A stretch of 64,000 nucleotides of DNA from a virus. The translations under genes and the position numbers were made by a program. The stretch is from the IMG/VR virus record IMGVR_UViG_3300030339_000006, one strand, 5' to 3'. The notes beneath the pieces were generated by a model. That model searched no databases. It saw only the letters and a program-made list of their open reading frames with translations, and had not been told where the DNA came from. Numbering within the stretch: the first letter of the stretch is position 1; each line of letters opens with the position of its first letter. Shown piece by piece: positions 13,568 to 49,018 of this stretch.

Positions 13568-13781
13568 AATGTTCCAAAGAAAACCCAGATAGGACAAGGG
13601 CTTAGACGATTCTGTGACATTGTTACATCGGAACGTCTCCAACCCACCCTTATTAGAGACATCTTACCCCTATACATACATTACTATGGATCTTTAAATA
13701 GGTATATATAGGATACTACCTACTCTATGGGGATAAAGGGGGTGTGTGTTTAGGGGTGTTGTTCCTGTAACGGTGTCACAG
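13568..13781. repeat. Non-coding dyad-symmetric element, copy 1 (copy 2 at 48811-49018)
   Basis: Identical 28, 47 and 20 nt blocks shared with copy 2; arms CTGTGACA..GTTACA..GGAAC / GTTCC.TGTAAC..TGTCACAG. Confidence 0.9.
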
Positions 13782-14400
13782 CCCGGTCACGATAGTACCC
13801 AATCATGTTACCTGCTGCGTTTCCTACCTTCGAGGCAAGATACGCGGTACCCAAAGATCCCCCGATGGCGAACAATGGGTTTGTCCCATTTGTCATCATA
13901 CGGGCAGCCAGAGGAACGACCGACGCGATACCCAGGGCAGAACCCATGTTTGAGTAACGTGACTGACGATCACTCATGATGTCCACGTGGGTCAGTGCTT
14001 CCGGGATCATATCCACAGAGTCAGCTGCAGCAATCGCTCCGTCTACTACTCGACGTCCGATTGCTCCCCCTACTATAGACCCGCCGATAGCGCCTGCAAC
14101 GCCCGCTGCGACCTTAGCACGCAGTGACCCTGGCATTGCTGCGGCTGCAAGGTAAGAACCCAGCAGAGAGCCTCCTATGCCACCTCCTGACTGGATTACG
14201 TCTTTGGCCACGTACCCCAGGTCATCGATCGGGCGATCCATCAGGGCCACCTTCTCGAGCGGTTTCTGACGGAGCAGAGCACGAATCTTCGCTTTGGCGT
14301 ATGACAGCGCCATTTTATGAGGACGAGGGTCAGTACTCGCCTTCAGCAGCACCTTGATTTCCGGGCTGCGGTATACTTCAGTTACGTTAGAATCCTCCAC
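13750..14400 (-). CDS. Glycine-zipper membrane/virion protein
   Basis: GTG start; LEKVA followed by two GxxxG-rich helical hairpins. Confidence 0.55.
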   Translation of the reverse strand: MEDSNVTEVYRSPEIKVLLKASTDPRPHKMALSYAKAKIRALLRQKPLEKVALMDRPIDDLGYVAKDVIQSGGGIGGSLLGSYLAAAAMPGSLRAKVAAGVAGAIGGSIVGGAIGRRVVDGAIAAADSVDMIPEALTHVDIMSDRQSRYSNMGSALGIASVVPLAARMMTNGTNPLFAIGGSLGTAYLASKVGNAAGNMIGYYRDRAVTPLQEQHP

Positions 14401-14545
14401 GTCTGGCTCCTAATTTCTTTGCACGACGGTACATACCGTTGATCGACATACGGGTGCCACGTAGGAGTCCGCGAAGAGCGATGAAGCTGCCCAGCCCGGC
14501 CCCGATCTTGATCCCCGTCTCCAGATAAGACTTTTGTTCATTCAT
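14387..14545 (-). CDS. Small basic protein with hydrophobic helix (52 aa)
   Basis: Not in track: MNEQKSYLETGIKIGAGLGSFIALRGLLRG...; GGAGG RBS; TAAAATAT motif upstream. Confidence 0.55.
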   Translation of the reverse strand: MNEQKSYLETGIKIGAGLGSFIALRGLLRGTRMSINGMYRRAKKLGARRGGF

Positions 14546-14565
14546 AGTGTTCCTCCATTCAGCTC

Positions 14566-14582
14566 ATATTTTAGGGTATAAG
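14566..14582. promoter_or_regulatory. Back-to-back promoters: TAAAATAT (-) and GGTATAAG (+)
   Basis: ATATTTTA-G-GGTATAAG-CAAG-GTGTAG in divergent gap. Confidence 0.6.
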
Positions 14583-14623
14583 CAAGGTGTAGTAGAAACC
14601 ATTGTACCCCAAAGGAGGTGCCT

Positions 14624-14836
14624 ATGAAATATCGCATTACAGAAAGGATTGCCGGGTTCAACTACGCGGCAGGACTTCTGGCGAGCTCACGTGCCCTAAG
14701 CGATGATGACCTTCGTCTCGCGGTAAATACCATGATCGAAAACGCTGAGATAGCCACAGAGAGCTACCAGCGGGGCGTCGAAGATGCCCTTATGCATTCC
14801 CATCCGTATCTTTCTAGAAGACTCGGCCACTACTGA
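14624..14836 (+). CDS. Hypothetical protein
   Basis: AAGGAGGT RBS. Confidence 0.6.
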   Translation: MKYRITERIAGFNYAAGLLASSRALSDDDLRLAVNTMIENAEIATESYQRGVEDALMHSHPYLSRRLGHY

Positions 14837-14894
14837 TCCCGCGAGGGACATTCTGAATGGTCTTCATTCACAATTTTCCTTAAAGGAGATTTCC

Positions 14895-15248
14895 ATGGAA
14901 ATCTTAAAAACCCCCATCACCTTCAACTTCTGTGGCCTCCTGTTGAAGTTCGTTATTGATCCATCTGGCCGTCGTCTGGTTGATTCCGCCAAGCTTTGGT
15001 CCGACCTGGAACTCTGGCAGCGTCCGGCTCCGGATTGCACTGAGTATCTGTATGAAGAAGATCGCGAGGGGATACCATCCTGGTCGGTCTCCCGGTTCAG
15101 TAACCTAGAGGATCTGAAGAAACGCCACGAGCAACTCTCCACGATCGCTCTGATGAAGGACAACAAAGGTTTCATCCAACTGGGCTTCCTGCTCGAACAT
15201 TACCCACAACTCCTAGCAAAGCTAGATAAGGACTTACAATGTCAATAG
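14895..15248 (+). CDS. Bro-N/antirepressor-N-like protein
   Basis: AAGGAG RBS; ITFNFCGLLLKFVIDPSGRRLVDSAKLWSDLEL. Confidence 0.5.
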   Translation: MEILKTPITFNFCGLLLKFVIDPSGRRLVDSAKLWSDLELWQRPAPDCTEYLYEEDREGIPSWSVSRFSNLEDLKKRHEQLSTIALMKDNKGFIQLGFLLEHYPQLLAKLDKDLQCQ

Positions 15249-15862
15249 AAACATTCAACTTCCACGGTGAATCAATCCGCTTCAACTTAGACACCATGCA
15301 GATCAGCGTTTCGGATATTCTCTCCGTCATCGCCAATGACGTAAGCCAATTTGCCCTTGAGTCTAAATTCTCCTATTGGGTAGGCCTGGATAAAGTCATG
15401 GATGTCATCTCCGAAGGTTCGGATGGTTGCGGTGAATGTGGGGTCTGCACGATCTGGCTGTTGGAATTCGTCCCGACGTTGGTCAAGTGGTTGACCTGGC
15501 AGCATAGCGCCCTCGACCCAATCACGATCAACGAAGACGAATACAGCAAAGGCTTCAAAGAGGTCTACTGGGCACAGAAAGACGCCAAACACACTACCGC
15601 GTATCTGCTCTCAGGTGTTTTCACAGATTTGTACTCCCCGTGGGACGATCGCTGTGAAGTGAAGGTGGGTATGGGATACATTCCGTTAGAGGGTGAATTC
15701 CAGTACCGCGTCGTTCACGTGGTCCGTGATGTTGATATCGTAGAGGATGTCCCGGGTGGCTTCCCGCTCCGCTCTACTCGCTCGGTTACCCTACGTCTGG
15801 GTGTCGAAACGATCATCAAAAGTGCGGATCTCGGCAGCTTGCTCCACACGCTGTCCCGTTAA
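15239..15862 (+). CDS. Bro-N-like N-terminal domain protein
   Basis: MSIETFNFHGESIRF...ISVSDILSVI. Confidence 0.5.
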   Translation: MSIETFNFHGESIRFNLDTMQISVSDILSVIANDVSQFALESKFSYWVGLDKVMDVISEGSDGCGECGVCTIWLLEFVPTLVKWLTWQHSALDPITINEDEYSKGFKEVYWAQKDAKHTTAYLLSGVFTDLYSPWDDRCEVKVGMGYIPLEGEFQYRVVHVVRDVDIVEDVPGGFPLRSTRSVTLRLGVETIIKSADLGSLLHTLSR

Positions 15863-15886
15863 AATCCGGGGTGGAGGTACCACCCT

Positions 15887-16222
15887 ATGATCGAAATTGT
15901 GTACTTGAACGGAACTCCGGTAAATACCATTAAGACTGACGCGATCTACGTCGATGTCGTGAAGTTCTGGAAGGACCTAAAGATCCGCGTGGATCTGGCA
16001 CCCCTTCCTCCTTTCACGGAAATCCTCACGAGCGAATCAGAGAAGAGCTTCGCACTGGGCCAGTACGTGACCCTTGAAGACTTCGTCCAAGCCGTTTCTA
16101 ACATGAACCCGATTGCCATCGATGCAGCTATTCAGCATGCGATTTCCGTCGGTCTCACGGAAGCGGTCACGACTTACTGGGCATCACTGCCGGAGTTCAC
16201 ACCTATCTACAAGCCCCGCTAA
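15887..16222 (+). CDS. Bro-N/antirepressor-N-like protein
   Basis: GGAGG RBS; VYLNGTPVNTIKTDAIYVDVVKFWKDLKI. Confidence 0.45.
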   Translation: MIEIVYLNGTPVNTIKTDAIYVDVVKFWKDLKIRVDLAPLPPFTEILTSESEKSFALGQYVTLEDFVQAVSNMNPIAIDAAIQHAISVGLTEAVTTYWASLPEFTPIYKPR

Positions 16223-16233
16223 GGGGCTTTTTT
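16211..16233 (+). terminator. Rho-independent terminator
   Basis: AAGCCCC-GCTAA-GGGGCTT-TTT. Confidence 0.6.
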
Positions 16234-16244
16234 CGGAAACTGCT

Positions 16245-16877
16245 ATGGATTTTTTCGGTTGTCCAATTGATATCACGGTAGAACGCGGGCAGGTACATAT
16301 CGCCAGCACATCCCTGACTGAAAACCTCATCCTCCCTAAACGATTGGACCGAATGATCCTCGAGACCGACAAGATCCCGTTGGATTTACTCCTTCCAATC
16401 CTCAACCAATTCTCTGATACGAACAAGCAGGGCATCTTCCGCCGCCATCTGATCGAGGCCATCGTGATTGACAGTACGTGGATGACGAAGAAACTCCAGA
16501 AGGTGTATCCTCGCGTCGTTCCCGTCGTCCCGGGGCTTAACGTAACCTGCTACAACGAGGAAGGCCTCTGGATTGACGCGATGGATCTGGAGTATGACTT
16601 AAATCCCAAAGCTCGCCCCGCCCGTATCCCCCGATTATCCATGCGTCCATTCGACATGATGTATCGCCCTCGCCTGGCTCATCTGGAGCAGATGGAACGC
16701 GTCCGCTACTTTATCCCACTGCGTAGCCTCGACGATTACCTGGCCGCCAGCCGCAATCTGGCCAACGACAAGAACGTCCGGGCGTGGAAAGGACGCATCG
16801 AATCTGCCCTCCTGGATTACTGGGAGAACCTGGCGGACCTATCCTCTATCGGCTTACCGGAGAAATACCGTGCTTAA
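16245..16877 (+). CDS. Bro-N/antirepressor-N-like protein (possibly two domains)
   Basis: MDFFGCPIDITVERGQVHIASTSLTENL and internal VPGLNVTCYNEEGLWIDAMDLEYDL. Confidence 0.45.
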   Translation: MDFFGCPIDITVERGQVHIASTSLTENLILPKRLDRMILETDKIPLDLLLPILNQFSDTNKQGIFRRHLIEAIVIDSTWMTKKLQKVYPRVVPVVPGLNVTCYNEEGLWIDAMDLEYDLNPKARPARIPRLSMRPFDMMYRPRLAHLEQMERVRYFIPLRSLDDYLAASRNLANDKNVRAWKGRIESALLDYWENLADLSSIGLPEKYRA

Positions 16878-17151
16878 AAACGTTGTCATTATCTTCGGGG
16901 TATCCCTCCCAATCATGGAGGATGGCCACCTGGTGTACGTCGACCCTGGTGAGCTTCTGAAGAAGCTGTCGATAGACCGCGAGCTGATCCCGTGCAATCG
17001 TCGAGTTGGCTGGTGGGATGGCTTCTGCCACATCTCTAAGGCCACGATGACTTCGGAGTACTTAGTGTATATGCTCAGGACTTTAAGGGGTTCACAGGAA
17101 GAGATCGAGAAGTACAACATCTACGCTGATGAGATTGAGCGACGGGTGTAA
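16870..17151 (+). CDS. Bro-N/antirepressor-N-like protein
   Basis: GTG start, GGAG RBS; VIIFGVSLPIMEDGHLVYVDPGELLKKLSI. Confidence 0.5.
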   Translation: MLKNVVIIFGVSLPIMEDGHLVYVDPGELLKKLSIDRELIPCNRRVGWWDGFCHISKATMTSEYLVYMLRTLRGSQEEIEKYNIYADEIERRV

Positions 17152-17182
17152 AAGAAAAGGGCCCCGTTAAGGGCCCTTTTTT
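17151..17182. terminator. Bidirectional terminator between convergent blocks
   Basis: AAAAGGGCCC-CGTTAA-GGGCCCTTTTTT. Confidence 0.75.
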
Positions 17183-17267
17183 AGGCAGGAAAATGAAATT
17201 TCAACAGCATTCACAACATTCAATAACATAAGGAGGACTTCCACTATAGCTAAGTCCTCCTGGACTG

Positions 17268-20200
17268 TCAACCCGTAATTCGAATCGGAGTGTCACTTTG
17301 TACGTGACCTGCTTCGAGAGCCGCCAGTGCTTCAGCTTCTGTCTTGAATTCCACGACTTTCTTATCCATGTTCGGCTTAGTCAGGTGAACTGAACCGAGG
17401 ATCGCTTCGTGGCCCGGTGCGAACATCGGGTTGCCGTAACCTTTACGAGCGTCGTGCAGGTTGCTCGAAGGCATCAACTTCTCCTTCGCTTCCCGTACGG
17501 CTTCCGGAGTCATCGGCACGAACATCGACATGGCGTCACCGTCGTAGTCGGCTGCGAACGCCGGTAGGTGGAGGATGTTCACCCCGATCGTCTTACCGTC
17601 CGTCGGCACTGCCTTCATCGCCATGATGTTGGTACGCATCAGGGTCGGTGCACGGTTCAGCATGACCGGAACGGTATCCACGATGTGGTTAAAGCTCGCC
17701 GTCGCTGCGTCGTTACGTCCTTCGTAGGCGTTCTTCGCTTCCGCCAGGTCATACCCTTTCTGGCTCAGGTCACGAATGATGTGCATCTTGTACATCGTCC
17801 AGAGCTGATCAGCGGGGATACGGGCCTCGTTGAAACCAATATCTGGCGCCGCGTAGATCGTACCACGACCGGAGAAGTCCTGTTTCTTCTTCAGGATCTT
17901 ATCCTGGAAGTAACCCGTCTTCGGTCCACCGGTACCTTCCAGCTGACGCATCAGGCCTTTGGTCCCCTTCTGCTTCGCTTGGAAGTCAATCGGGTCACCG
18001 CCGTCCATGATTGCTTTCGCCCCGTTGTACAGGTCACGACGCAGATCGACCATCCCTTCCATGTCTGGAGAGATCATGTCCATCCCGATTTCGTCATCCA
18101 GACGCTTCAAGCGGCCATTTACCAGCATGTGGTGTTTGTACAGCTCGTTGACGTCAGCGTAGCCCAGACGGTTACCCGAAATGGTATACGGACGCATGAC
18201 CGGAGGAATTACCGGCATGTGGTGCAGCACGAGTGCCTTCGATGGATCCGTAAAGCCCTGCTTGGCCAGACCGGCCAGGTACTTCATCTTCTTCACGATG
18301 GTGTCACGCTTGGTGGCAGACTTCTCGTCCATCACTTTGCCACGCAGGTGGGCCAGCTCGTCGTCGACGTGAATGTCTTTCAACATCGCTTCGATCGCGT
18401 GTCCGCCGACCAGTGCTTCCCCACCCTCTTCTGCCGCTGCTTTCTCCAGCGTGTTGGAAACGGTCAGCTGTTTCACCAGAGCATCGTCCTTGTGGGTATC
18501 GACCAGGTCGAACAGGCCTTTACCGCGACGAATCACCCCATACTTCCCGGAGATCAGGTTCGTCATGTGCTCTTTGCTCAGACCCAGCAGGGCACGAGCA
18601 GGATCTTCCATGACCGGGTTAACGATCGGTTCCATCAGCTTGTAGTGAGACCAGTTGTTACCTTCTGGACCACCGGTCACGTCCATATCGAACAGGCCGC
18701 CCTTCACTGGAGAGACGTTACGAGCCAAGATCATGTCCGGCTTGTGAATCTCACCGCTCGAGTTACCTAGCACTTCACGGTCGGTCATTGGGCCGGCCAC
18801 GAGGTTACCGTTACGCTCAGAGACGTTGATGCCTGAACCACGCAGGTAATCGAAGAACTTACGCGTGGCGAAAGTCGTCTTCGGCTGCGGCAGTGGCAGG
18901 CCACGCATGAACTTGTCCCAGTAATCGTGGGTGTCAGAGTGATCACCACCTTCAGACTTCACGGTACCGATCTCTTTCAAGTTAGCACGAGCGTTGGAAC
19001 CCAACAGGCCCAGGAACTCCATGTAACCCACGGCCTTAGCACCATCGTCACCACCCTTAGTAGGCTGGGCGTTGTTGTCGTAGCCACCAACTGAACGGGC
19101 CGAGTAGTTCGCATCGGTCGTCTTGTTCAGCTTCAGGAAGTACTGTGGCCCCGTCAGGACATTCGTACCGTACACGTGACCGGTTTTCGGATCGATAACG
19201 GTGTCGGTGTCAGACAGGCCGTGCTCTTTTAGCTTAGCCATCAAGTTCTTGACGGTGTTGCCTTCTTCGTAGACTTTGGTCTTGTACGGCTGCCCGGTCT
19301 TCTGAGCAATCTTACCGGCCGCAGCTTCGAAGATCTGACCCAGGTTGATACGGGACGTTACTGACGCTGGGTTCAGAATCAGGTCGAACGGCTTACCGGT
19401 AGTACCGCTGGTAGGCATTTCGTCGTCTTCGAGAACCGCTGAGACCACGCCTTTGTTCCCGTGGAAGCCAGTGACTTTATCGCCGATCTCCAGGTTACGT
19501 TCACAGCGAACCATGATGCGAATCTTCTTCCCGTCAACGCTGGTGTCGGTCACGGTACCTTTTTCTTTGTGGTCCCAGACTTCTGCAGCAGAACGGTACG
19601 GGTTCACCAGCGTCTTATGCAGACGGCCGAGCACCATGTCCGTTTCGGTCAGTTGACGCTGCTCGAGAACGGCGAAGACCGGGTCACCGTATTCCAGCAC
19701 GGCACCCTGCTTAGCGAAGCCACGGGAGTCCAGCTTGGAGAGCTGCTCTGCAGTGAACTTGCCGGCGAAGGCTGCTTTGTACTTGTTGACGTCCGCGATG
19801 GTGTCTTTACCCATCTCGTATTCCACTTTGTACGCGTGGTTGGACTGCAGCTTCTCCGTCGCAGAGCGAGACACGACGATACCATCTTCGTGGTTGAACC
19901 CTTTGAATGGCATGTACGCCGTTTCCAGGTTCTTACCGATCGCCAACTGGCCGTCTTTGGTGTAGTTGTTGTCCGTCAGTACCTGACCGGCTTCAACCTG
20001 AGCACCGACCGGGTGCAGGTTAGGTTCGTCATCGTGGAAGCCTTTCATGTTGAACGGCAGGTTCTGCACGAAGTCGACGGTGTGTTCTTTCCCGTCGTGA
20101 GCCTTGATCACCATCTGAGACGGTGTGGACTTCACTACGGTACCCGTCACCGGCGCCACGGTAGACACGATCTTACCGATCGCAGAAACGAAGGTCTCGC

Positions 20201-21848: not shown

Positions 21849-22116
21849 TGCGTTTCTCCATGTAGATTACAACGGCAGTATAGATCCCGGTGGCAGACGA
21901 GATGGAGTCTTTACGCTCCACCACAATGACACTGCCCTGCAGGCTTCGAGTCAGGAGAGACTCCATCTGCAGCGTGTCATCGTCTTCACCCCCGATAGTG
22001 AAGTACCCGATACGGTACTGCCACTCGTCCATGTTAATCCCTAACTGATCAACGGCCGGGGTAACCCCGGGCATTGCGTTCCCTTCATTACTTGGTTCCA
22101 GCGGATTCTTGGCCAT
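21841..22116 (-). CDS. Small protein between portal and RNAP
   Basis: 91 aa; AAGGAG RBS; overlaps both neighbours. Confidence 0.6.
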   Translation of the reverse strand: MAKNPLEPSNEGNAMPGVTPAVDQLGINMDEWQYRIGYFTIGGEDDDTLQMESLLTRSLQGSVIVVERKDSISSATGIYTAVVIYMEKRNA

Positions 22117-23800
22117 CTTGTTCTCCTTGTTGTGCCGGTGGCAGGTTTTCGATGATGTTCATAACGCTCTGATACATCGTCTGGTCTTTCGCCTGTAGAG
22201 CCAACAGAGCTTGCTGCTGAGCTTCTGGAGGAGTCTGCAGAATCTTCGCAGCTTCGTCATAGGCTTCTTTACGGTTGTCAGCGAATCCTGAGCTGTCTTT
22301 ATCAGACGCCAGGCCTTTGGATTTCGCGAAGATTGCTTTCTCGACGAGGTCTTTCGTTTCGACCTGGCTTTCAGCAGAGGAGACGGTATCGTTCATCATC
22401 TTCTCGAGTTCTTCATCATAATCCATTCCGAACGCTTCTAACAGGGTAGATGCAGACAAAATGTTAGATTTCCACATGTCCATCATGGACGCTTTCAGTG
22501 CTTCGTTATCCGTAAGTTTAAACGGCACGAGCTTCACTTCGGCAATCTCCAGAGACAGATATGACGCGATCTTCTCCATGATCCATTCGATCATATCCTT
22601 GAGCTGGCCCACGTAGTTGTTCATCGTGTTTTCCAGCAGACGCAGACCGATGGTTGAAGACGTCCAGTTAGTCGTACCAGACAGCAGTTCACGGGATACC
22701 CCCATGGACATCAGCTGTTGCTCTTCAGCGTACTGCAACTCTTGGGAGACCAACAGGGAACGTCCCTGGCCACCGATTTGCTGCGAACCGATCGGGATCG
22801 GAGAGATCAGCACGTGGTTCGGGTCCGACTTCATCTGACGGATTGTCCCCTTCATGTGCTTCGCGAAACCACGCAGTGACATCTGGGCCACCGGGTCGGC
22901 GTTCGCTGAGTTCTGCTGCGGGAAGATAACACGCAACGGAACCATGTGTTCTGCCGCCACTGCTTCGTTAGCCTTGCGGAGCATTGCCTGGTAGAACACC
23001 AGACCGTAGTGAGAGATCAACGGTGGGATGCCCAGCCCATCAATCATGTTACCCATCGAAATGGACTTCATGTGGTAGATGTTGGTGTCATCGAACAGGT
23101 AATCTTTACCAAAGCGTACGGCTTCAACCATAGACCACGGCACGGTAGACAGGAACAGTGGGTCGCCCATCATGATCTTCTTCTTCACGTCGCCAGGAAT
23201 CTGATAGTAGAACTCGGATTCTCCGGTCACCGGGTTGTGGTTCAGAGAGACGTTCTCTGGTTTCCACTTGATCAGGTTGATGCGAGACACGTCACGGGAC
23301 TTAGTGTCGACCAATTTGTAGTTCACGATGTTGTGACAGTTCGGGCATTCCCCGACGAATTGCCATTTCTTGAACGCTGCGAAGCCAGAACGCATGGCAG
23401 TCTTCACTTCGTAGGACGAGCGGCAGTTCGGGCAGTGCACGTGGCGGTCAATCGGGAAGTAGATCGACGTGTAAACGTTACCGAGCGTGTAGTAATCGAA
23501 ACCGGCGTCACAGAGCTTCTCTTTGAACTTGATGCTCTTGAAGATCTGCTTGTACGTCTCGATGGTTTTCTCGTTCTTGGAGTCCGTCAGGAACTCAGTG
23601 ATCGGGTAAGAGGAAAGCTTACGGATCACTTCGGTGGTAGTCGGCGCCTGGGTAGTGATGTAGCGGGACCACTTGATAATGTCATGAAAGCTACGCGGGA
23701 TGAACTGGTTCGCTTGCGTAAAGAAAGGACTCGGCAGTTGGCCGACCTCGTAGCTGTCATACATTCCACTCGGGGTGGGGTTAAGTCCGAACATTGACAT
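22088..23800 (-). CDS. Portal protein (probable) with CxxC..CxxC insertion
   Basis: 570 aa; DYYTLGNVY, IYHMK..GLGIPPL, MGVSRELL, ILSASTLLE..G.D.DEE portal-like patterns; two CPNC. Confidence 0.65.
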   Translation of the reverse strand: MSMFGLNPTPSGMYDSYEVGQLPSPFFTQANQFIPRSFHDIIKWSRYITTQAPTTTEVIRKLSSYPITEFLTDSKNEKTIETYKQIFKSIKFKEKLCDAGFDYYTLGNVYTSIYFPIDRHVHCPNCRSSYEVKTAMRSGFAAFKKWQFVGECPNCHNIVNYKLVDTKSRDVSRINLIKWKPENVSLNHNPVTGESEFYYQIPGDVKKKIMMGDPLFLSTVPWSMVEAVRFGKDYLFDDTNIYHMKSISMGNMIDGLGIPPLISHYGLVFYQAMLRKANEAVAAEHMVPLRVIFPQQNSANADPVAQMSLRGFAKHMKGTIRQMKSDPNHVLISPIPIGSQQIGGQGRSLLVSQELQYAEEQQLMSMGVSRELLSGTTNWTSSTIGLRLLENTMNNYVGQLKDMIEWIMEKIASYLSLEIAEVKLVPFKLTDNEALKASMMDMWKSNILSASTLLEAFGMDYDEELEKMMNDTVSSAESQVETKDLVEKAIFAKSKGLASDKDSSGFADNRKEAYDEAAKILQTPPEAQQQALLALQAKDQTMYQSVMNIIENLPPAQQGEQDGQESAGTK

Positions 23801-39314: not shown

Positions 39315-39378
39315 AGAGGCCTCCTGTTTCGTAGTAGTGTACTGCATGTGTGAGGGTTTAGCTATATTCCCTAATCCG

Positions 39379-39395: not shown

Positions 39396-39428
39396 ATTTT
39401 TAGAAACCACACTACACGTAGAGGACCT

Positions 39429-39920
39429 ATGAACAATTTATCCGATCAAATCAAGTATCTTTCAGACAAGCTCCCAGCGGCCATTGAGATCTACACCGAT
39501 GGCTGTTGCAAGGGCAATCCAGGTCCTGGCGGTTGGGGTGTGTACTTTGAGGCTCTCGACGATGGCCTGTGCGGCGGCGAAGTGATGACGACCAACAATC
39601 GCATGGAATTAATGGCGATGCTCACTACCCTGACCGTGCTCAGCCAAGTCCCCTTCACCTCTGCGAATATCTACCCTGACTCTCAGTACGTCCGTAAGGG
39701 CTTGACAGAGTGGCGTAATAACTGGGAACGTAATGGCTGGCGGACCGCCGATAAGCAGCCAGTAAAAAATAAAGACTTGTGGGTTCAACTTTTGCCGCTC
39801 TATGATACACTAAAGTCCAAACTCTCCTTCCATTGGGTGAAAGGCCATTCCGGTATTCCTGGCAATGAAGCCGCCGATGCACTAGCCAACAAAGGTTACA
39901 TTGAATGTTTAACGAAATAA
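39429..39920 (+). CDS. rnhA: Ribonuclease HI
   Basis: IYTDGCCKGNPGPGGWG, TTNNRMEL, DSQYV, VKNKDLW, WVKGHSG..GNE.AD.LA. Confidence 0.97.
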   Translation: MNNLSDQIKYLSDKLPAAIEIYTDGCCKGNPGPGGWGVYFEALDDGLCGGEVMTTNNRMELMAMLTTLTVLSQVPFTSANIYPDSQYVRKGLTEWRNNWERNGWRTADKQPVKNKDLWVQLLPLYDTLKSKLSFHWVKGHSGIPGNEAADALANKGYIECLTK

Positions 39921-42796
39921 AACAACGGGTATCCATCGTCGATGCCTATGACAAGTACTGCCCTGAAGTCCCACTGCGTGCCCGCGGTGAGAACGATTTC
40001 ATCCCCGAGGATGATTGCTGTCCGTGGCATGGAGGCCACGGTTCGTTCCACGTCATGTTCGACATTGAAGATCCGACCAAGGGTTTCGCCAAGTGTTTCT
40101 CCTCAGCGTGTACCCATCCTGAGGAAACGGCCGATGTTATCGAGTTCGTTCGCCGTACGCTGAGCCTGGAGAGCCCGAAAGAGGCTGCCCAGCGTATCAT
40201 CGCGGACTTCGAACTCGGCCTGGTCTTCGAGGTCAGTACCAGCCAGAAGATCTTCAACGAAGCCGCTCAGTATTACCAGAACATGTTCCTGACGTCGAAG
40301 ATCTACGAATCCATCGACAAGAAAACTCCTCTGGACTATCAGAAGGAGAACCGTGGGCATAAAGAGGCTACTCTTTTAGCCTTCCGCATCGGTTGGACTG
40401 ACGGTGCCGAGTTGTGCAAGCACTTGGAAATGAAAGGGTTTACCGTCGATGAGATCGTGGCCAGCGGCCTCGGTGCCAAGACCGGTACGTCCATCCGTGA
40501 CAAGTTGCCGAAGGAAGCGTTCGTCTACACGGCGTACGTCGGCGGCCGCCCGTCTCGCTTTACCTTTAAGACACTACGTCTGGGTAACGACGGCAAGCCG
40601 ATTGCCTACCAGTTGAAGAAAGAGTTCTGGCTGAACGGTGTGGTCGTCATGGGCCAGGATACTGTCGCCAGTCACGAAGACATTGCCGTGGTAGAGGGTG
40701 AGAACGACGCACTCTCCTTGATGGACATGGAGTGGCCGGGCGGTATCATCATCATGAATGGCCAGCCAGGCAAGAACCAATACGAGTACCTGAAGACTGC
40801 CTTGAAGCATAAGCGTATCCATACGTTCTATGACGCGGATGAAGCCGGTGACAAATACCGACTGAACTCCTGGGCGTGGGCGGAAGGTGAAATCCATCAA
40901 TACCGAGTTCCGGAAAACGACGAAGATGTGGATCTGTATATTCAGCGCCGCCGTAATGATGAGCTTAATCCTGTCGAGCGTCTCATGGATGGCGGTGAAG
41001 TTGCTCGTCCGTCTAACGGCGAGGCTGATAACGCAGCTGTTAAGGTTACTGGCTCCGGTCAGATAATCGAGAAGGACGGTTGCTACTTTGGCTTCAAGCA
41101 ATTCACTTCGGCGAACGGTGACGTGAAAGAGCAGCTGACCCAGCTGACCAACTTCACGATCAAAATGAAGACCGTGCTGGTACACCGTGGCGACCGTATC
41201 CGTGAGTTGGAATTCACTCGCGACGACGGTTACCGCTCCGGTTCTGTCTACCTGAACTCCTCGTCCAAGTCCTCTATGCGACTGTTCAAGGAATTCTGTG
41301 CGAAGTCCGGTGACGCTCTGTTCCTCGGAACGGATTCTGACCTGAACAACCTGTGGATGCACTTGGCGGCGACACAGCGTGAACGTGTAGTGAACATCCC
41401 TGAGTACTGCGGTTACGTCGCTGAGTTGAACATGTGGCTGTTCCGTAACGTCATGATCAATAACGCGACCGGTGCTGTGTACTTACCGGACGAGCGTGGC
41501 ATCTTCTGGACGCAGCCGGGCCAGGGTATCATGCCACAATCCATCTCCTCGGACATTCTGCAGGACGGTGTGAACGTGGAAGACGCGATGAATATCCCAA
41601 TGCTTCGCGATGATATCAAAGATCCGGAAGAGTTCATGGAGTGGCAGGGCGAGGTGATTCGTCGTCTGGCGGATATCGTTGGCATGCAGGAAGCCTGTAC
41701 CCTGATGGGTTGGGCCAATGCGAATGCGTACTCGACGGCAATCTTCCAGTCACAGCACTTCTTCCCAATGCTGATGTTCTGGGGCCGCCACGGTAAAGGC
41801 AAAACGACGATCGTGCAGTGGATTCTGTCGACCTTCGACATGCTGGAGAACAACAAAGGCTACATGGTGGTGTCAGCGATGGAGAAATCCACCGTCGGCT
41901 TCCAGCGGAAGATGGAGTATTACTCCAGCCTGCCAATCTGTGTGGATGAACTGCGTGCGGACTTCAAGACCAAAGAGCACTACTCCATGTGGCGTGGTAT
42001 GTTCAACCGTGCACCGCGTACTCTCGGTACTCCGCGTCAGGGTGTCGTTAAGCTGCAGAAAGTCCGTGCCAATCTGGGCTTCGGCGGTCAGGATGCCTTC
42101 ACCGATGCTGCTCTGCAGTCTCGCTGTATTGGCATGAAGACCAGCAACATGCGTAGCGACGAGCGTTCCCAAGCGTCCTACCGCTGGTTGAGCAACGAAG
42201 TGGACTACTTCCCACGCTTTGGTTACCACTGGATTCTCGAGTCCACCCGTGCAGATAAAGCCTCGATGGAACTCGCGTGGGAAGAGATGAAGGAGCGTAT
42301 CAACGCTGCCCTGCCAAAGGGTTCCGACGTTGGTTCCCGTACGAAGGACATGTGGAAAATCGTTGGGTGGTTCGGTGAACGCTTCATGAACACCTACTTC
42401 CCAGGCGAAGAGTACATGCCATGGATGCTCAACCAAATCCGTCAGGACGTTGAGATGCAAACGGAAGTCGATATCGTCACCGAAGTGTGGAGCAAGATTG
42501 CTTCCCGTCAGGTCGGCCGCAATCCCGATATCACCCTGGACCACGTCATGACCGACGGCAGCAAGCTCTACGTGTGGTGGCCGGCAGTGATGGACATTCT
42601 CGACCGTGAGTTGGCTCACTTGGGTCATGCCAAGTCGACGATTCGCACGGCAATGCTAGAGGAAGCGTACTACGAAGGCACCGCTACCCGTCGTATGGGT
42701 GTGGCCAACCATCAGCGTCGCGTCCTCGTGTTCAACCTCGAAAATGCACCGGAAGTCGTGAAGCAAATTGCGATTGTCTCTCCGGACGGCTTTTAA
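39905..42796 (+). CDS. DNA primase-helicase fusion
   Basis: Zn finger CPWH..CF..C, DnaG-like core, TOPRIM VEGEND / FYDADEAG, P-loop GRHGKGKT, Walker B CVDE. Confidence 0.88.
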   Translation: MFNEIKQRVSIVDAYDKYCPEVPLRARGENDFIPEDDCCPWHGGHGSFHVMFDIEDPTKGFAKCFSSACTHPEETADVIEFVRRTLSLESPKEAAQRIIADFELGLVFEVSTSQKIFNEAAQYYQNMFLTSKIYESIDKKTPLDYQKENRGHKEATLLAFRIGWTDGAELCKHLEMKGFTVDEIVASGLGAKTGTSIRDKLPKEAFVYTAYVGGRPSRFTFKTLRLGNDGKPIAYQLKKEFWLNGVVVMGQDTVASHEDIAVVEGENDALSLMDMEWPGGIIIMNGQPGKNQYEYLKTALKHKRIHTFYDADEAGDKYRLNSWAWAEGEIHQYRVPENDEDVDLYIQRRRNDELNPVERLMDGGEVARPSNGEADNAAVKVTGSGQIIEKDGCYFGFKQFTSANGDVKEQLTQLTNFTIKMKTVLVHRGDRIRELEFTRDDGYRSGSVYLNSSSKSSMRLFKEFCAKSGDALFLGTDSDLNNLWMHLAATQRERVVNIPEYCGYVAELNMWLFRNVMINNATGAVYLPDERGIFWTQPGQGIMPQSISSDILQDGVNVEDAMNIPMLRDDIKDPEEFMEWQGEVIRRLADIVGMQEACTLMGWANANAYSTAIFQSQHFFPMLMFWGRHGKGKTTIVQWILSTFDMLENNKGYMVVSAMEKSTVGFQRKMEYYSSLPICVDELRADFKTKEHYSMWRGMFNRAPRTLGTPRQGVVKLQKVRANLGFGGQDAFTDAALQSRCIGMKTSNMRSDERSQASYRWLSNEVDYFPRFGYHWILESTRADKASMELAWEEMKERINAALPKGSDVGSRTKDMWKIVGWFGERFMNTYFPGEEYMPWMLNQIRQDVEMQTEVDIVTEVWSKIASRQVGRNPDITLDHVMTDGSKLYVWWPAVMDILDRELAHLGHAKSTIRTAMLEEAYYEGTATRRMGVANHQRRVLVFNLENAPEVVKQIAIVSPDGF

Positions 42797-42804
42797 GGAG
42801 CCCT

Positions 42805-43050: not shown

Positions 43051-43051
43051 T

Positions 43052-43786: not shown

Positions 43787-44211
43787 TCGATCTATCCATT
43801 GAGAACAGTCACTGGATTCGTGCGTTTGAGTTCATGATGAGTGAGTTCAGACAGGATGCCCAGAAGGGGTTGTACCGTCCGGACCGGCAGGTAGTGGGCG
43901 TAGGGTTAGACCGTCGAGACCTGGCGTTGAACTCCACAGCGTTAACGCTACTGCTGAACACCAACGGTATCGGCTGTGAGTTCCACCCGGGCTTGCTCCG
44001 GGAAGTGAAGATCACCCGGCCGGTCGAGCAGGTTGGCAATGTTGTGTATCTGAACGGTGCACCGTCGCCGGAGCTCTTCGTTGAACTGATTGCGAACGAT
44101 ATCCCTGTTCCGATGGATGCGACCTTGGATGCTATCGCCGAACACTACAACGCGGGAGGGTCAATCTTCATTGTCCCTGCTGAAATTCACTGGCCGTTCT
44201 TACGGCAGTAA
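43762..44211 (+). CDS. Hypothetical protein
   Basis: ORF in operon; start uncertain. Confidence 0.55.
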   Translation: MAEAETRLIDLSIENSHWIRAFEFMMSEFRQDAQKGLYRPDRQVVGVGLDRRDLALNSTALTLLLNTNGIGCEFHPGLLREVKITRPVEQVGNVVYLNGAPSPELFVELIANDIPVPMDATLDAIAEHYNAGGSIFIVPAEIHWPFLRQ

Positions 44212-44213
44212 CC

Positions 44214-44240
44214 AAAGGCCCTTCGGGGCCTTTTCTTTTT
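44214..44240 (+). terminator. Rho-independent terminator
   Basis: AAAGGCCC-TTCG-GGGCCTTT-TCTTTTT. Confidence 0.7.
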
Positions 44241-44248
44241 GGTGAACT

Positions 44249-45142: not shown

Positions 45143-45324
45143 AGTACCTGTGGATGGCGATCGCTTGCCTCTTCGCTTCATTCTTCTGCGGGGCGAGCAT
45201 GTTTCTCAGTGCACACGAAGGTTCACCGGAGGTGGTTCGCGGATTGTTCTTACTGGGGGAGTTTATCTTCTGGGTCGTCTGCGGGTATATACTGACGTGG
45301 CTGCTGTTTAAGATCTTCGACTAA
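45139..45324 (+). CDS. Small two-TM membrane protein
   Basis: GTGA overlap with thyA; two hydrophobic helices. Confidence 0.55.
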   Translation: MKYLWMAIACLFASFFCGASMFLSAHEGSPEVVRGLFLLGEFIFWVVCGYILTWLLFKIFD

Positions 45325-45405
45325 AAAAGTCCCCCGGCAGGAAAAGGAGGGAAAACCTTTCCGGGGGCAAAGATATAAGTGAGCCTTGATAGTACCCACT
45401 TTCCG

Positions 45406-45425
45406 GGTATAAGTAAAGTAGGAAA
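45406..45425 (+). promoter_or_regulatory. Phage promoter GGTATAAG
   Basis: Intergenic; GAGGA RBS follows. Confidence 0.6.
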
Positions 45426-45443
45426 TTTAACTGAGGAACGATT

Positions 45444-45875
45444 ATGAAACTGTATGCATTCTGCCAAGGACACCCGAGTGGTGTTGAAGGATTAACAATC
45501 AGTGCTGACGGTGATGTCATCGCCGGGCATTTCTCTTCGAACTCCACCTGGGCCCGTCACGACATGGGTGCCGATGGTCGGAGCGATTGGAAACACGATA
45601 TCTATGACAAGAAGTACGGTGCCGGCAACTGGGAGATCGAGTGGGTTGAAAACCCGGATGAGCATCCTGGCCTGATGGCTGCGATCGCTGCGAACCACGC
45701 TCAGCCACACCGCCTGACTTACGTCGTGAAGGATGGTCATCTGGTTATCAACTACGGCAGCGACGAGATAAAGCTGGGTGAGGAATTCCTCGAGTCAGAT
45801 CTCAAGAGTAATCGCCTTATCTACCGCTTGAACGACATCTTCGGCGGAGAAGAATGGGAGCTTGATCCGGCATGA
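45444..45875 (+). CDS. Hypothetical protein
   Basis: GAGGA RBS. Confidence 0.6.
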   Translation: MKLYAFCQGHPSGVEGLTISADGDVIAGHFSSNSTWARHDMGADGRSDWKHDIYDKKYGAGNWEIEWVENPDEHPGLMAAIAANHAQPHRLTYVVKDGHLVINYGSDEIKLGEEFLESDLKSNRLIYRLNDIFGGEEWELDPA

Positions 45876-46972
45876 AAACCTTCCTACCCAAACTCTTAAA
45901 GCCCAGTAAGGGCGGCCACTTGCAGCAGTGGGAAGTCTGGTATCGTCCGAAGCTCGACGGGACGGCGGAACTGGGCACGGTCTATGGGCGGGCCTGTGGA
46001 AAGCTTCAGGAACACTCGATCATTATCAAGGAGGGGAAGAACATCGGTCGTAAGAACGAAACGACTCCCCTGACGCAGGCGGAAGCGGAAGCCAAATCGA
46101 TGCACGCGAAGCAGATCCGGACGGGGTATTCCCTGACTGGTGAAGTCGTGGCGGAGAAAGGCGTGATGTTGGCCGCAGATTACTTGGTGCTGGCTCAACG
46201 AAGGAAGGGTGTGGATCTTCCGGGCCGCGTTATCGTGTCACCGAAGCTGGACGGGATCCGTTCCCGGTTCATCTCGGGGAATCACGTATCGCGGGGCCAC
46301 TTGAACTTCCGCGGTATCCCGAGTCGTATCACGGAGTACCTCAATCACGTGAACTCTCCCGCCGACGGGGAGATGTACATCCACGGGATCCCTCTGCGTC
46401 GGCTGAACGGGTTGGTGAACCGCTACGAAGAAGGCCTGACGGAACGCCTGCAGTACCACATCTTCGATCTCCCCGTTCCAGGCATTCCAGTTGAGGAACG
46501 CAAGGCGATCATCGCTGAACGTTTCGACAATCAAGAAGCCCGTGACCAAGGGGTTATCGTGGTGCCATACGAGACCGTTGCCTCAGAGCGGGTCGAGGTC
46601 TACAAGAACCGTTACGTGGAGCTCGGTTTTGAAGGCGTCATGATTAACCTGTTGGGCTTCGAGTACCTGTTCCAGAACAAGCGGGATAACCGTCTGATCA
46701 AGTGGAAAGACTTCTTCGAACGTGAGTACATCGTCACTGAACTCGAAGAGGACGCGGACGGCGGGGCGAAGGCGGTGGCCTACACGGATGAGGGTGTGCG
46801 TTTCACCATCACGCTGAAGGCGGAAGACTGGATCAAAGAGGATCTCCTTCGTCATCCGGAGAAGCTCGTAGGTCTGCCACTGACCACCCGCTACCAGACC
46901 ATCCTGGACAGCGGTATCCCGCAGTTTGCCCGCGGTATCGTTGAGCGTATCTATGAAGGAGACATTGGATGA
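45872..46972 (+). CDS. lig: ATP-dependent DNA ligase
   Basis: SPKLDGIR, DGEMY, YHIFD, FEGVMI, IKWK; N-terminal GKNIGRKNETT domain. Confidence 0.92.
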   Translation: MKTFLPKLLKPSKGGHLQQWEVWYRPKLDGTAELGTVYGRACGKLQEHSIIIKEGKNIGRKNETTPLTQAEAEAKSMHAKQIRTGYSLTGEVVAEKGVMLAADYLVLAQRRKGVDLPGRVIVSPKLDGIRSRFISGNHVSRGHLNFRGIPSRITEYLNHVNSPADGEMYIHGIPLRRLNGLVNRYEEGLTERLQYHIFDLPVPGIPVEERKAIIAERFDNQEARDQGVIVVPYETVASERVEVYKNRYVELGFEGVMINLLGFEYLFQNKRDNRLIKWKDFFEREYIVTELEEDADGGAKAVAYTDEGVRFTITLKAEDWIKEDLLRHPEKLVGLPLTTRYQTILDSGIPQFARGIVERIYEGDIG

Positions 46973-47400
46973 ACATCGAAGAGCTACAGGAGGTAGTTGC
47001 TAACCCGAAGACCTCCCTGGAACAGTACTTGGCTCTTCAGTTGATTGATCTACTGAAGCAGGGGTCCGTGCGAAAGAATTATCTTGCAGGGTATGATGAA
47101 GGCCATTCACGGGGGGTGAATTGCGGAAGGCTTTACAAAGTGGACGATGGCATGCGGGGTCACCGCCATGCTTGTGCGAATGCGTATTCCACTTCTCCGG
47201 AAGTCTCCTGGATACCCTGCCGTGTAAGGAATCCGGAAGAGAGCGGGCGATATCTATGTTATGTCGAAGAGATAAACTCTCTAGGAAAAAGCCACTACCA
47301 GTGGAACTGCTCCTGGAACGGTCAGGTGTGGTCCGACGCAGCACTGACCGGACGTGTTACCCACTGGCGTGAATTACCGGAACGACCGGAGATCAAATGA
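46969..47400 (+). CDS. DUF551-like domain protein
   Basis: WIPC...PE..YL...VTHWRELPERP. Confidence 0.7.
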   Translation: MNIEELQEVVANPKTSLEQYLALQLIDLLKQGSVRKNYLAGYDEGHSRGVNCGRLYKVDDGMRGHRHACANAYSTSPEVSWIPCRVRNPEESGRYLCYVEEINSLGKSHYQWNCSWNGQVWSDAALTGRVTHWRELPERPEIK

Positions 47401-47648
47401 GTGAACTGTTGGAAGTAACTCGGGGAAGAACTACTATGGCATTAGTAGGTCGACACCATCAGGAGTGGCTCAAAATCCTTCAGGCTATCGAGGATGGTGC
47501 AAACCGAGGAGAAACATCCATCGAGGTCGATAACGACTACGGTGATCTGGCCCCGGCCCTCGTAGATGCACTGCGTCTTAAGGGTTTCCGGTCGAACTTC
47601 AATCACGAAGGACGCACCCGTATCTACATTGATTGGAGAGTACGCTAA
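47397..47648 (+). CDS. Hypothetical protein
   Basis: GGAG RBS; ATGA overlap. Confidence 0.6.
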   Translation: MSELLEVTRGRTTMALVGRHHQEWLKILQAIEDGANRGETSIEVDNDYGDLAPALVDALRLKGFRSNFNHEGRTRIYIDWRVR

Positions 47649-47670
47649 ACTCAATAGGACGCGAGTAAAC

Positions 47671-47694
47671 GGGTATAAGTAAGGTGTAACCAAC
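47671..47694 (+). promoter_or_regulatory. Phage promoter GGGTATAAGTAAGGTGTAACCAAC
   Basis: 24 nt identical to 59942-59965. Confidence 0.75.
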
Positions 47695-47709
47695 ATAGGA
47701 GCAATCATC

Positions 47710-47814
47710 ATGACCTACGGTAAAGCCATTCTTATCGCGATCTTATTCGCCACCGCATTCACCGCAGCGGGAACGCTGGACTACAATTCTCAACTGACAG
47801 TACTCAGCCGATAG
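47710..47814 (+). CDS. 34-aa hydrophobic peptide
   Basis: Not in track: MTYGKAILIAILFATAFTAAGTLDYNSQLTVLSR; AGGAG RBS; own promoter and terminator (47821-47850). Confidence 0.65.
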   Translation: MTYGKAILIAILFATAFTAAGTLDYNSQLTVLSR

Positions 47815-47863
47815 TGGCTGGCGGGCGCCTTCACGGGCCCGTTCTTTTTTAGCGAGGAAAGCA

Positions 47864-48490
47864 ATGAACTGGTCTGATATCGATGGCCTGGATGTGGACC
47901 AGGCAGCCGAAGCGATTTGGCAACACAACCACACGAGAACTCGACTGGAGACCATCCGGTCTATGCTCGGAGCGGCACCGACGGATCTGAAGGGTTACCG
48001 TCCGGACGGTGATTACAAACACCAAATGGTCAATCTCGGCCCGTACGCAGAGAAAGTGGTTGCCAGAGTGTTGACAGACGGGGATAATATAGCCTTACGC
48101 TCACCGGACAATAACAACGCCCGGGACATCTACTTCGTCAACAACGGCCGTGTCCAGGATCGTGGACTGCAGGTCAAACTGGGAGATCCAAATGAACACA
48201 TATTCTATTCTCTACGCAAAAGACTTGCTCGTGGCCACGCTGATGACATTGTTCTTGATGACAGTCTCGTCAGTGACGGACGGCTGGGCGAAGCGTTTAC
48301 GCCTTACAAACGCCGCAGTCTACAGACCGCGATTGATGGGGCCGGCGTTCGGGTACTCGGTGTCCCTGGCCTCCTGGCTCGAGCCCGGACCGAAAGAGCT
48401 ATCGATGCTTCACGAGGGGTCCGCAGTGGGATACTTCGAATGGTCCGTGCGGGACAGAATTTAAAATATTCGAAAAAGATTGATGTGTAA
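47864..48490 (+). CDS. Hypothetical protein, possible PD-(D/E/Q)XK fold
   Basis: GAGGA RBS; E...DIYF...LQVK. Confidence 0.55.
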   Translation: MNWSDIDGLDVDQAAEAIWQHNHTRTRLETIRSMLGAAPTDLKGYRPDGDYKHQMVNLGPYAEKVVARVLTDGDNIALRSPDNNNARDIYFVNNGRVQDRGLQVKLGDPNEHIFYSLRKRLARGHADDIVLDDSLVSDGRLGEAFTPYKRRSLQTAIDGAGVRVLGVPGLLARARTERAIDASRGVRSGILRMVRAGQNLKYSKKIDV

Positions 48491-48493
48491 GGG

Positions 48494-48522
48494 TTGACAG
48501 CCAGTGAGCAGAAGGATATAGT
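48494..48522 (+). promoter_or_regulatory. Host sigma70-type promoter
   Basis: TTGACA-N17-TATAGT. Confidence 0.7.
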
Positions 48523-48554
48523 AGCTACATCTTCCACCCAACCTGGTAAACACC

Positions 48555-48773
48555 ATGAAACTGAAGCACGAAGGTCAGCAGTACGAAATCCGCCCTATTC
48601 TTCCAAAGAATAAGGATGGTTCCCAGAAGAAAGGCCGTTATGGCAAAAAGCCGGCGACAGAAATTGTCCACGCTTACTCCGCAGACGCGGCGATGAAACT
48701 GGCAGTGGTACGCGGGATTATCCCAGCGAACACACTGATGTCGTACTACGAAGCCATCCCACTTCGTAAGTAA
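48555..48773 (+). CDS. Small basic protein
   Basis: 72 aa; single-gene unit between sigma70 promoter and terminator. Confidence 0.65.
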   Translation: MKLKHEGQQYEIRPILPKNKDGSQKKGRYGKKPATEIVHAYSADAAMKLAVVRGIIPANTLMSYYEAIPLRK

Positions 48774-48778
48774 CATTT

Positions 48779-48802
48779 GGGCCCACTTCGGTGGGCCTTT
48801 TT
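48779..48802 (+). terminator. Rho-independent terminator
   Basis: GGCCCAC-TTCG-GTGGGCC-TTTTT. Confidence 0.8.
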
Positions 48803-48810
48803 GTTTCTAG

Positions 48811-49018
48811 AATGTTCCAAACCTTTCCCTTATCCGTCAAGCACTTACACCCTTCTGTGACATTGTTACATCGGAACGTCAGAAAGTCACCCTTATTAGA
48901 GACATCTTACCCCTATACATACATTACTATGGATTCAAAATAAGGTATATATAGGATGCTACTACCCTCTAGGGACTAAAGGGGGTGTGTGTTTAGCCGC
49001 GTTGTTCCTGTCACAGAA
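48811..49018. repeat. Non-coding dyad-symmetric element, copy 2
   Basis: Same orientation and block spacing as 13568-13781; bounded by TTCTGTGACA (48853) / TGTCACAGAA (49009). Confidence 0.9.

Follow-up and report, generated by a model that had tools for sequence, protein, structure and literature searches.

Why should a virus carry the same non-coding element at sites tens of kilobases apart, and what might such an element do? The question is raised by a 64,000-nucleotide stretch of DNA (the window) from the IMG/VR virus record IMGVR_UViG_3300030339_000006, in which an original prediction, made from the letters without database searches, described two copies of a ~210-bp element with dyad symmetry. 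The copies do lie in the same orientation, 35,243 bp apart, starting at 13568 and 48811. We find that they belong to a family of five homologous elements, spread almost evenly around the genome and present at matching gene positions in related phages. We propose, at a probability of roughly 0.6, that a 176-kb lytic phage replicates from these five sites as SaPI-type (staphylococcal pathogenicity island) origins, which a primase fused to an initiator helicase would serve.

The window corresponds to positions 59480-123479, read on the minus strand, of a 176,021-bp virus record (here G000) that is rated 100% complete. Positions 1-127 and 175895-176021 of the record are identical over 127 bp, which we take to be an assembly overlap, giving a circular map of 175,894 bp; in IMG/VR the label of the source record is 'linear' and that of several relatives sharing this 127-bp overlap is 'direct terminal repeats'. 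The phage is a relative of Salmonella phage Arash (OQ632216.1), with a median protein identity of ~66%, and the repeats go unmentioned in both the Arash paper (PMC10585845) and the Arash GenBank record. Further relatives were found by searching IMG/VR with the RNA-polymerase protein, and eight complete or near-complete genomes were taken (G001, G002, G003 and G005-G009). An IMG/VR search with the protein encoded downstream of the second window copy returned no relatives.

In the orientation of the window, the five elements lie at 33.2 (c1), 66.1 (c2), 101.3 (c3), 136.2 (c4) and 175.7 kb (c5), all on the window plus strand; c2 and c3 are copies 1 and 2 of the original prediction. A profile search of the genome found no sixth copy. 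The gaps between neighbours are 32.9, 35.2, 34.9, 39.5 and 33.4 kb on the circular map. When five gene boundaries were drawn at random 200,000 times, 4 draws matched or exceeded the observed minimum gap and 5 matched or fell below the observed standard deviation of the gaps; an analytical estimate, (1-5x)^4, gives ~2e-5. Chance would produce so even a spacing about 2 times in 100,000. A BLASTN-type search for more copies had been suggested at the outset; the answer is that the genome holds five and that relatives carry counterparts.

Each element is built to the same plan. From left to right it has an upstream ATGTTCC word, a variable linker of ~31 nt, a left arm, a core and a right arm. The left arm is made of three 8-nt units (TGTGACAT, TGTTACAT and CGGAACGT), the core starts with CACCC, passes through an AT-rich centre and ends with GGGGGTG, and the right arm gives the left-arm words inverted (GTTCC, TGTCACAA and TGTCACAG). 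The outer arms form a ~21-bp inverted repeat of tandem TGT(G/T)ACA words with GGAAC/GTTCC. The parts of the two window copies are as follows.

13568-13781, plus strand: element c2, between the converging 3' ends of open reading frames (ORFs) 12969-13508(+) and 13750-14400(-); nhmmer E 9.5e-70
13568-13578, plus strand: c2 upstream word cluster A, AATGTTCCAAA, with ATGTTCC, the inverse of the left-arm GGAAC(A/G)T word
13579-13609: c2 variable linker, ~31 nt, with a small hairpin
13610-13637, plus strand: c2 left arm (cluster B), TGTGACAT, TGTTACAT, CGGAACGT
13645-13753, no strand assigned: c2 core, CACCC to GGGGGTG; the least stable 40-60 bp window starts at ~13649-13669
13761-13781, plus strand: c2 right arm (cluster C), GTTCC, TGTAAC, TGTCACAG
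48811-49024, plus strand: element c3, after the terminator at 48779-48798 and before GGTATAAC at 49043-49050 and the gene starting at 49101
48853-48880, plus strand: c3 left arm, identical to the c2 28-mer
48888-48996, no strand assigned: c3 core and AT-rich centre
49004-49024, plus strand: c3 right arm, GTTCC, TGTCACAG, then AAGTTCCA; second TGTCACA word missing

All of the identical blocks quoted in the original prediction occur in both copies, with differing linkers between them: the 28-mer (13610-13637 and 48853-48880), a 47-mer (13645-13691 and 48888-48934), AGGTATATATAGGAT (13700 and 48943), a 20-mer (13734 and 48977) and GTTGTTCCTGT (13758 and 49001). Its view that short words recur like iterons is borne out by the tandem TGT(G/T)ACA and GGAAC/GTTCC words of the arms, and the right arm of c2 does overlap the last codons of ORF 13750-14400(-). 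The nested dyad symmetry that it described holds for the inverted repeat of the outer arms, whereas the inner stems are not kept in all copies. Each side of an element carries at least two iterons of 5-7 nt, opposed to those of the other side, except that the right arm of c3 is shortened to a single TGTCACA, its outermost word being lost. The linker (13579-13609 and 48822-48852) contains a small AAACCC...GGGTTT-type hairpin in most lineages (G001, G002, G003, Arash and G006), with stem letters that vary between copies.

The copies are mosaics of one another. On its left side, including 50 nt of upstream flank and the terminator, c5 resembles c2, and on its right side it resembles c1. Between c2 and c5 the similarity runs over 265 bp at 94% identity and takes in the upstream terminator hairpin and an extra TGTGACA word (window 13480-13567, compared with the start of the record). 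Such mosaicism indicates recombination or gene conversion among the copies, and the likeness of c2 and c5 well past the core element points to recent gene conversion between distant sites.

The five-site arrangement is shared with relatives. Arash contains exactly five dispersed ~210-bp repeats (at 26.6, 66.4, 100.1, 138.5 and 173.3 kb), every one between the same orthologous genes as here; G001, G002 and G003 likewise contain five apiece at even intervals, and these four genomes and G005 each hold their five at matching gene positions. In G005, whose proteins are 45-48% identical to those of this phage, the equivalent of c2 is inverted (~100.0-100.3 kb, L084-L086 region) while the order of the flanking genes is kept; G009 likewise holds one inverted copy. 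Wherever it is present, namely in the five-copy genomes and G009, the c2 equivalent lies between converging gene ends. This position, together with the inversion in G005, implies a function independent of driving a gene. The more distant relatives have fewer elements: four in G009, at least three in G006, and two large palindromes each in G007 and G008, those of G007 being nearly antipodal (98.5 and 93.9 kb).

Similarity between genomes fades much faster than the layout does. A profile made from the five copies of this phage matches all copies in G001 and G002, on the same strand and over most or all of the profile (E 3e-15 to 8e-5). In Arash the matches are again on the same strand, and three of the five are significant (E 1e-5 to 4e-4); position decides the assignment of the other two, which score E 0.048, over part of the profile, and E 0.33. 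These matches show that the element families are homologous. BLAST of the element DNA against Arash and nine relatives gave only weak matches, in G002, BLASTN against GenBank phages gave none, and a search of IMG/VR for the exact structural pattern gave none. The arm words are particular to each lineage: TGTGACA/TGTTACA in this phage, TGTAACC in Arash and G003, GATACGT in G001 and G002, TGTGTCG in G005, TGCTACA in G006, TGTAACA in G009 and AGTTCCGA in G007, with GCCAGTTTT also among the words of the relatives. What stays constant in the nine relatives is the design, tandem 7-nt words with a period of 8-9 bp, inverted across an AT-rich centre. Judged from these comparisons of sequence, the copies are homogenised within each genome and diverged between genomes, which is concerted evolution of an ancestral, selected layout.

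A second conserved property is the weakness of the duplex at the centre. When nearest-neighbour duplex stability was computed along each genome, the element centres proved to be the five least stable windows of the genome (ranks 1-5), at both 40 and 60 bp, in all six five-copy genomes, and took ranks 1-4 for 40-bp windows in the four distant genomes. Because the central sequences differ by lineage, low stability appears to be conserved as a property in itself. The spacer between the arms is 110-144 bp long and 64-67% AT, against 47% for the genome, a predicted meltable centre comparable to the AT-rich region of roughly 80-100 bp that marks a SaPI-type origin.

If the elements are origins, which protein might read them? 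The original prediction pointed to Bro/KilA-like genes near copy 1. That link is weak: PHROGs, Pfam and NCBIfam searches with the genes flanking the elements gave nothing informative, only one MerR match and one sub-threshold P22_AR_N match, the latter at E 0.0015 and 19 bits against a cut-off of 30.7. A better candidate partner is a primase-helicase fusion encoded 26 kb from that copy.

39905-42796, plus strand: candidate trans factor, 963 aa, with an N-terminal DnaG/Toprim-type primase and a C-terminal part of ~563 aa

The C-terminal part comprises a P-loop ATPase and, at its very end, a winged-helix-like domain. Nine orthologues carry the Walker A (GRHGKGKTT) and Walker B (DELRAD) motifs of this ATPase without change. 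An AlphaFold model of the C-terminal 563 aa (predicted local distance difference test score, pLDDT, 78.5; predicted template modelling score, pTM, 0.69) matches Cch of the staphylococcal cassette chromosome mec (SCCmec; 5dgk) over its full length, with a Foldseek E of 1.7e-11 and template modelling (TM) scores of 0.54/0.57, and the SaPIbov1 Rep initiator-helicase (8tch) at E 4.4e-10; next in order come poxvirus D5/E5, NrS-1, MCM and the SaPI proteins PriRep5 and PriRep1. On this predicted fold, the protein annotated as 'DNA primase' joins a DnaG/Toprim primase to a self-loading helicase of the Cch/SaPI-Rep-like (MCM-like) kind, and a cognate Rep-type helicase is encoded in the same replicon as the elements at the level of fold only. 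The corresponding Arash protein is gp183 (WGL32634.1). A search of the whole genome found no DnaB-type helicase, and equally no ParB-type protein and no topoisomerase II A subunit.

The last ~90 residues of the protein are its fastest-evolving part in every pair compared, and the pattern is weakly suggestive of a C-terminal domain whose sequence divergence tracks the class of arm word. Protein divergence as a way to single out the word-reading protein was dropped, since the word classes merely follow the phylogeny of the phages and give no independent signal. A further trans factor may be an HU/IHF-family protein (PF00216, E 1.8e-31) encoded outside the window at G000:C1:40458-40727, 0.65 kb to the left of c4; its gene lies beside the same element in Arash and G005 as well, and the protein could assist the bending or opening of an origin.

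The combination of opposed iterons, an AT-rich centre and a Rep-like helicase is that of the SaPIs. A SaPI origin of ~300 bp has 6-12 penta- to heptanucleotide iterons, arranged as two opposing sets on either side of a ~100-bp AT-rich centre, the SaPI5 iteron being TGCAACC with a 9-bp period and some inverted copies, and SaPI Rep is a self-loading initiator helicase whose C-terminal winged helix reads the iterons (PMC9371898; bioRxiv 10.64898/2026.10.17.759575). Structures of Rep and PriRep proteins are in the PDB as 8tch, 7ola and 7pds. The phage elements resemble these origins in their opposed iterons of 5-7 nt, with a period of 8-9 bp here and 9 bp in SaPI5 and with some words inverted upstream, and the systems as wholes are alike in having a ring helicase with a C-terminal winged helix, a primase fusion (in SaPI5) and lineage-specific words. 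TGTAACC, the Arash word, is close to TGCAACC of SaPI5. G006 and G009 each have an element 0.6-0.8 kb downstream of the gene for the primase-helicase, separated from it by one small gene, an arrangement that recalls the adjacency of rep and origin in SaPIs. The differences are of scale and of descent. A SaPI is a 15-kb satellite with one origin directly downstream of rep, whereas here a 176-kb lytic phage has five dispersed copies (two to five in the family); the primase part is of the DnaG/Toprim type, and the likeness is seen at the level of fold only, at 9-11% identity with no detectable sequence similarity. The best structural match, SCCmec Cch, is likewise an MCM-like self-loading helicase (PDB 5dgk), but it has no primase fusion and is borne by a chromosomal cassette rather than a phage. 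We know of no cognate origin of this architecture that has been defined for Cch.

From these comparisons we infer the pairing of protein and word, the melting of the centre and the firing of the origins. Hypothetically, the C-terminal winged-helix domain of the primase/initiator-helicase (39905-42796) would read the arm words and load one helicase ring on each arm, facing the centre, as has been proposed for SaPI Rep proteins. The rings would then melt the AT-rich centre, and the protein's own DnaG-type primase domain would prime synthesis, so that forks would leave in both directions. With five near-equidistant origins, no pair of forks would have to copy more than ~40 kb. Recombination or gene conversion would keep the copies alike within a genome, while between lineages the copies may drift together with the DNA-reading domain of the protein.

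Parts of this arrangement have parallels in other viruses and elements. Herpes simplex virus (HSV) oriS and oriL have an AT-rich centre flanked by inverted initiator sites, and the ori and crr of P4 carry octamer iterons (TGTTCACC) at two separated loci, read by the alpha protein, a fusion of primase, helicase and origin-binding functions. Both differ from the phage system in copy number and spacing and in the enzymes, UL9 of HSV being a superfamily 2 (SF2) helicase and P4 alpha a superfamily 3 (SF3) helicase with a different type of primase. The homologous regions (hrs) of baculoviruses are imperfectly palindromic non-coding repeats, dispersed and homogenised, whose intergenic positions are conserved, and they are implicated both as origins and as enhancers. 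Each hr of these insect viruses consists of 30-bp palindromes in tandem, to which IE-1 binds. In the bacteriophage described here, a site is instead a single dyad unit of ~170 bp whose arms carry iterons; tandem ~30-bp imperfect palindromes of the baculovirus kind are not found in the elements, and the likeness is functional at most.

A parallel in size and number is T4, a lytic myovirus of 169 kb that uses at least five origins early in infection (oriA, C, E, F and G), among which there is no common motif (PMC3016281). Some T4 origins consist of a promoter and an unwinding element, oriE has iterons, and at oriF and oriG an R-loop starts from a promoter upstream of the unwinding element (PMC3016281). 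The genomes are of almost the same size. Since the T4 origins share no motif, they cannot be predicted from sequence. They are also unevenly spaced, unlike the five homologous sites with inverted iterons described here, whose associated promoter lies downstream and points away.

The genome is organised around two promoter-like words. The elements sit in the gap between the terminator of one transcription unit and the promoter of the next, c2 being the exception, as no promoter follows it. The original prediction had placed each copy just after a terminator. For c3 this is so, a terminator being called at 48779-48798 with a T-run; for c2 it holds only by eye, as a GC hairpin with T5 at ~13508-13530 for which the scan tool made no call. 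The most over-represented 8-mer in both this phage and Arash is GGTATAAG(taaggTGTAA). In each of the two it occurs 29-30 times on the plus strand against a single occurrence on the minus strand, and it precedes start codons by 35-40 nt, many plus-strand starts in the window by 36 nt. It probably serves as the early/middle promoter of this group of phages. A rare variant of it follows c3.

49043-49050, plus strand: GGTATAAC, promoter-like word, a rare variant of GGTATAAG

In the form GGTATAAC(TA) this variant follows c1, c3 and c5 within 23-153 nt in all five close genomes, and these sites are three of only 4-8 GGTATAAC words per genome. A second promoter-like word, CTAAAATA, stands 25-30 nt before the starts of structural and RNA-polymerase genes on the minus strand, for example before window ORFs 11014-12834(-) and 22088-23800(-). 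It is reminiscent of the T4 late promoter TATAAATA and is often back to back with GGTATAAG in divergent gaps. A scan for promoters of the sigma-70 type found nothing within the elements, and a scan of the window for transfer RNAs (tRNAs) and transfer-messenger RNAs (tmRNAs) found none.

Several observations weigh against reading the elements as origins. GC and AT skew along the genome shows no switch at the elements. Pfam, HMMER and PDB sequence searches place the C-terminal part of the candidate initiator in no family; a language-model search led to DUF927 proteins, a lead only, so that the assignment to Cch/Rep is drawn from one predicted fold, a nine-sequence alignment and that lead. The nearest element, c3, is 6 kb downstream of the helicase gene, which is not the adjacency of a SaPI. 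The identity of the C-terminal domain relative to that of the ATPase is 0.78-0.86 between phages of the same word class and 0.47-0.79 between those of different classes, ranges that overlap, and the putative recognition helix is conserved across lineages with different words. Three of the five copies are tightly tied to the rare promoter variant GGTATAAC, which allows for a transcriptional role instead of or as well as replication, and strong promoters, too, are typically AT-rich and easy to melt. A promoter that fires away from an origin may itself help to open it, as has been said of gidA at E. coli oriC.

Of the functions offered in the original prediction, dispersed origins or protein-loading sites are favoured over a structured non-coding RNA (ncRNA), because inverted iterons surround the least stable DNA, the sites evolve in concert at syntenic positions and a Cch/SaPI-Rep-type helicase is encoded. 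The strongest competitor, although an unlikely one, is that the elements are hr-like transcriptional control regions, either enhancers or a special and perhaps earliest class of promoter, bound by a phage regulator alone or beside origin activity. The recurrence of GGTATAAC after c1, c3 and c5 fits such a role, as do the partial match of GGTATAtatagg in the element centre to the promoter-like GGTATAAG and the single orientation, which by the count made for this explanation is kept by all but one copy in the family. In Arash the virion contains a multisubunit RNA polymerase together with a sigma-like factor (PMC10585845), and a few dedicated early promoters would then be expected. Against this, c2 lies at converging gene ends with no gene to drive and is nonetheless kept in the five-copy genomes and G009 and inverted in G005, and c4 lacks the GGTATAA word. 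Depending on the genome, between 23 and 153 nt separate element and promoter, giving no fixed phasing; even spacing is a property of the five elements and not of the three promoters, whose gaps are 33, 68 and 74 kb; and the sigma-70 scan is negative. Somewhat less likely again is another genome-wide site of contact between DNA and protein, such as an architectural or bending site for the phage's own HU/IHF-family protein, in the manner of E. coli BIME/RIP elements or P1 parS, a pac-like packaging site, a partition-like site or an anchor of supercoil domains. Even spacing would suit any genome-wide physical process, and the conserved HU/IHF-family gene near c4 would provide a partner. P1 pac and P1 parS have short words in opposed sets about an IHF-bent AT-rich centre, and BIME-1 (bacterial interspersed mosaic element) sequences lie directly after terminators, as the elements do here. 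Yet neither a ParB-type protein nor a type II topoisomerase A subunit was found, no element adjoins a terminase gene (the nearest, in Arash, is 7.5 kb away), and the word period, the word type and the ~100-bp AT centre are closer to a SaPI Rep origin, for which a matching initiator is encoded.

The idea that the family is a five-copy structured RNA gene, yielding a long hairpin RNA, a processing site or an antisense RNA, is improbable. The long imperfect dyad and an invariant core, as in multi-copy RNA genes, speak for it, and a few differences between copies within the arms keep pairing (at one position T-A in c2 and G-C in c4, and two U-G pairs in c2). Rfam, however, gave nothing relevant at the gathering cut-off or at E up to 1, and the covariation analysis proposed at the outset, run with RNAalifold on the five copies of this phage, returned a term of +0.16 kcal/mol, that is, no covariation. 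As RNA, neither strand folds better than the other across 30 copies from six genomes (mean difference 1.2 +/- 7.2 kcal/mol), and so nothing points to the G-U tolerance that a transcribed hairpin should show. Some copies (Arash copies 3-5 in record order) have lost inner stems, with one side still invariant, and an element between a terminator and a promoter is likely untranscribed. The hallmarks of an RNA family (compensatory pairs, G-U tolerance, a promoter and terminator of its own) are thus not seen, and tandem short words in opposed arrays are instead a signature of protein sites on duplex DNA. A stable cruciform, also suggested originally, is not indicated, since the single-stranded DNA fold of c3 has a z-score of -1.9, only modestly better than shuffles. 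Least probable of all is a selfish element of the MITE (miniature inverted-repeat transposable element) kind that spread within the genome without function for the phage. Terminal inverted repeats of ~21 bp, a length of ~200 bp, the lack of coding capacity and the presence of several copies would suit a MITE, but all five sites are common to phages with proteins only 45-67% identical, no sixth copy exists, spacing as even as this is expected about twice in 100,000 and the centres are always the least stable DNA. The design is also kept while the sequence turns over, similarity exceeds the inverted repeats (265 bp in c2/c5) and no transposase candidate was noted. In place of the variable presence, target-site duplications and random placement of MITEs, the same five sites, evenly spaced, are filled in six genomes.

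Origins of the form iteron, AT-rich centre, iteron are already known, as are self-loading helicases of the Rep type and the at least five origins of T4. Our literature searches found no family of tailed phages described as having a fixed set of homologous, near-equidistant and concertedly evolving origin-like elements together with a fusion of primase and Cch/Rep, and to our knowledge very few origins of large lytic phages have been mapped. A broader hypothesis, to which we would give slightly less than even odds, is that a family of large lytic phages carries a fixed set of two to five homologous, near-equidistant origins served by one fused primase/MCM-like self-loading helicase, that their spacing is under selection, and that the origins co-evolve with the DNA-reading domain of the helicase, possibly doubling as hr-like enhancers of the adjacent GGTATAAC promoters. 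If true, this would be a counterpart in bacterial viruses of the multi-origin organisation of chromosomes. Origin candidates in this family are defined by sequence, a candidate initiator can be named, and one member, Arash, is in culture on Salmonella Typhimurium. Should replication from the five elements be confirmed, the self-loading helicase system of SaPI and SCCmec would be extended from small satellites with a single origin to a 176-kb virus with five, and the family would provide a natural example of selection on the spacing of origins and of the concerted evolution of origins and initiator. It would also give a simple rule for finding origins in uncultured phages: inverted tandem words around the least stable DNA, evenly repeated.

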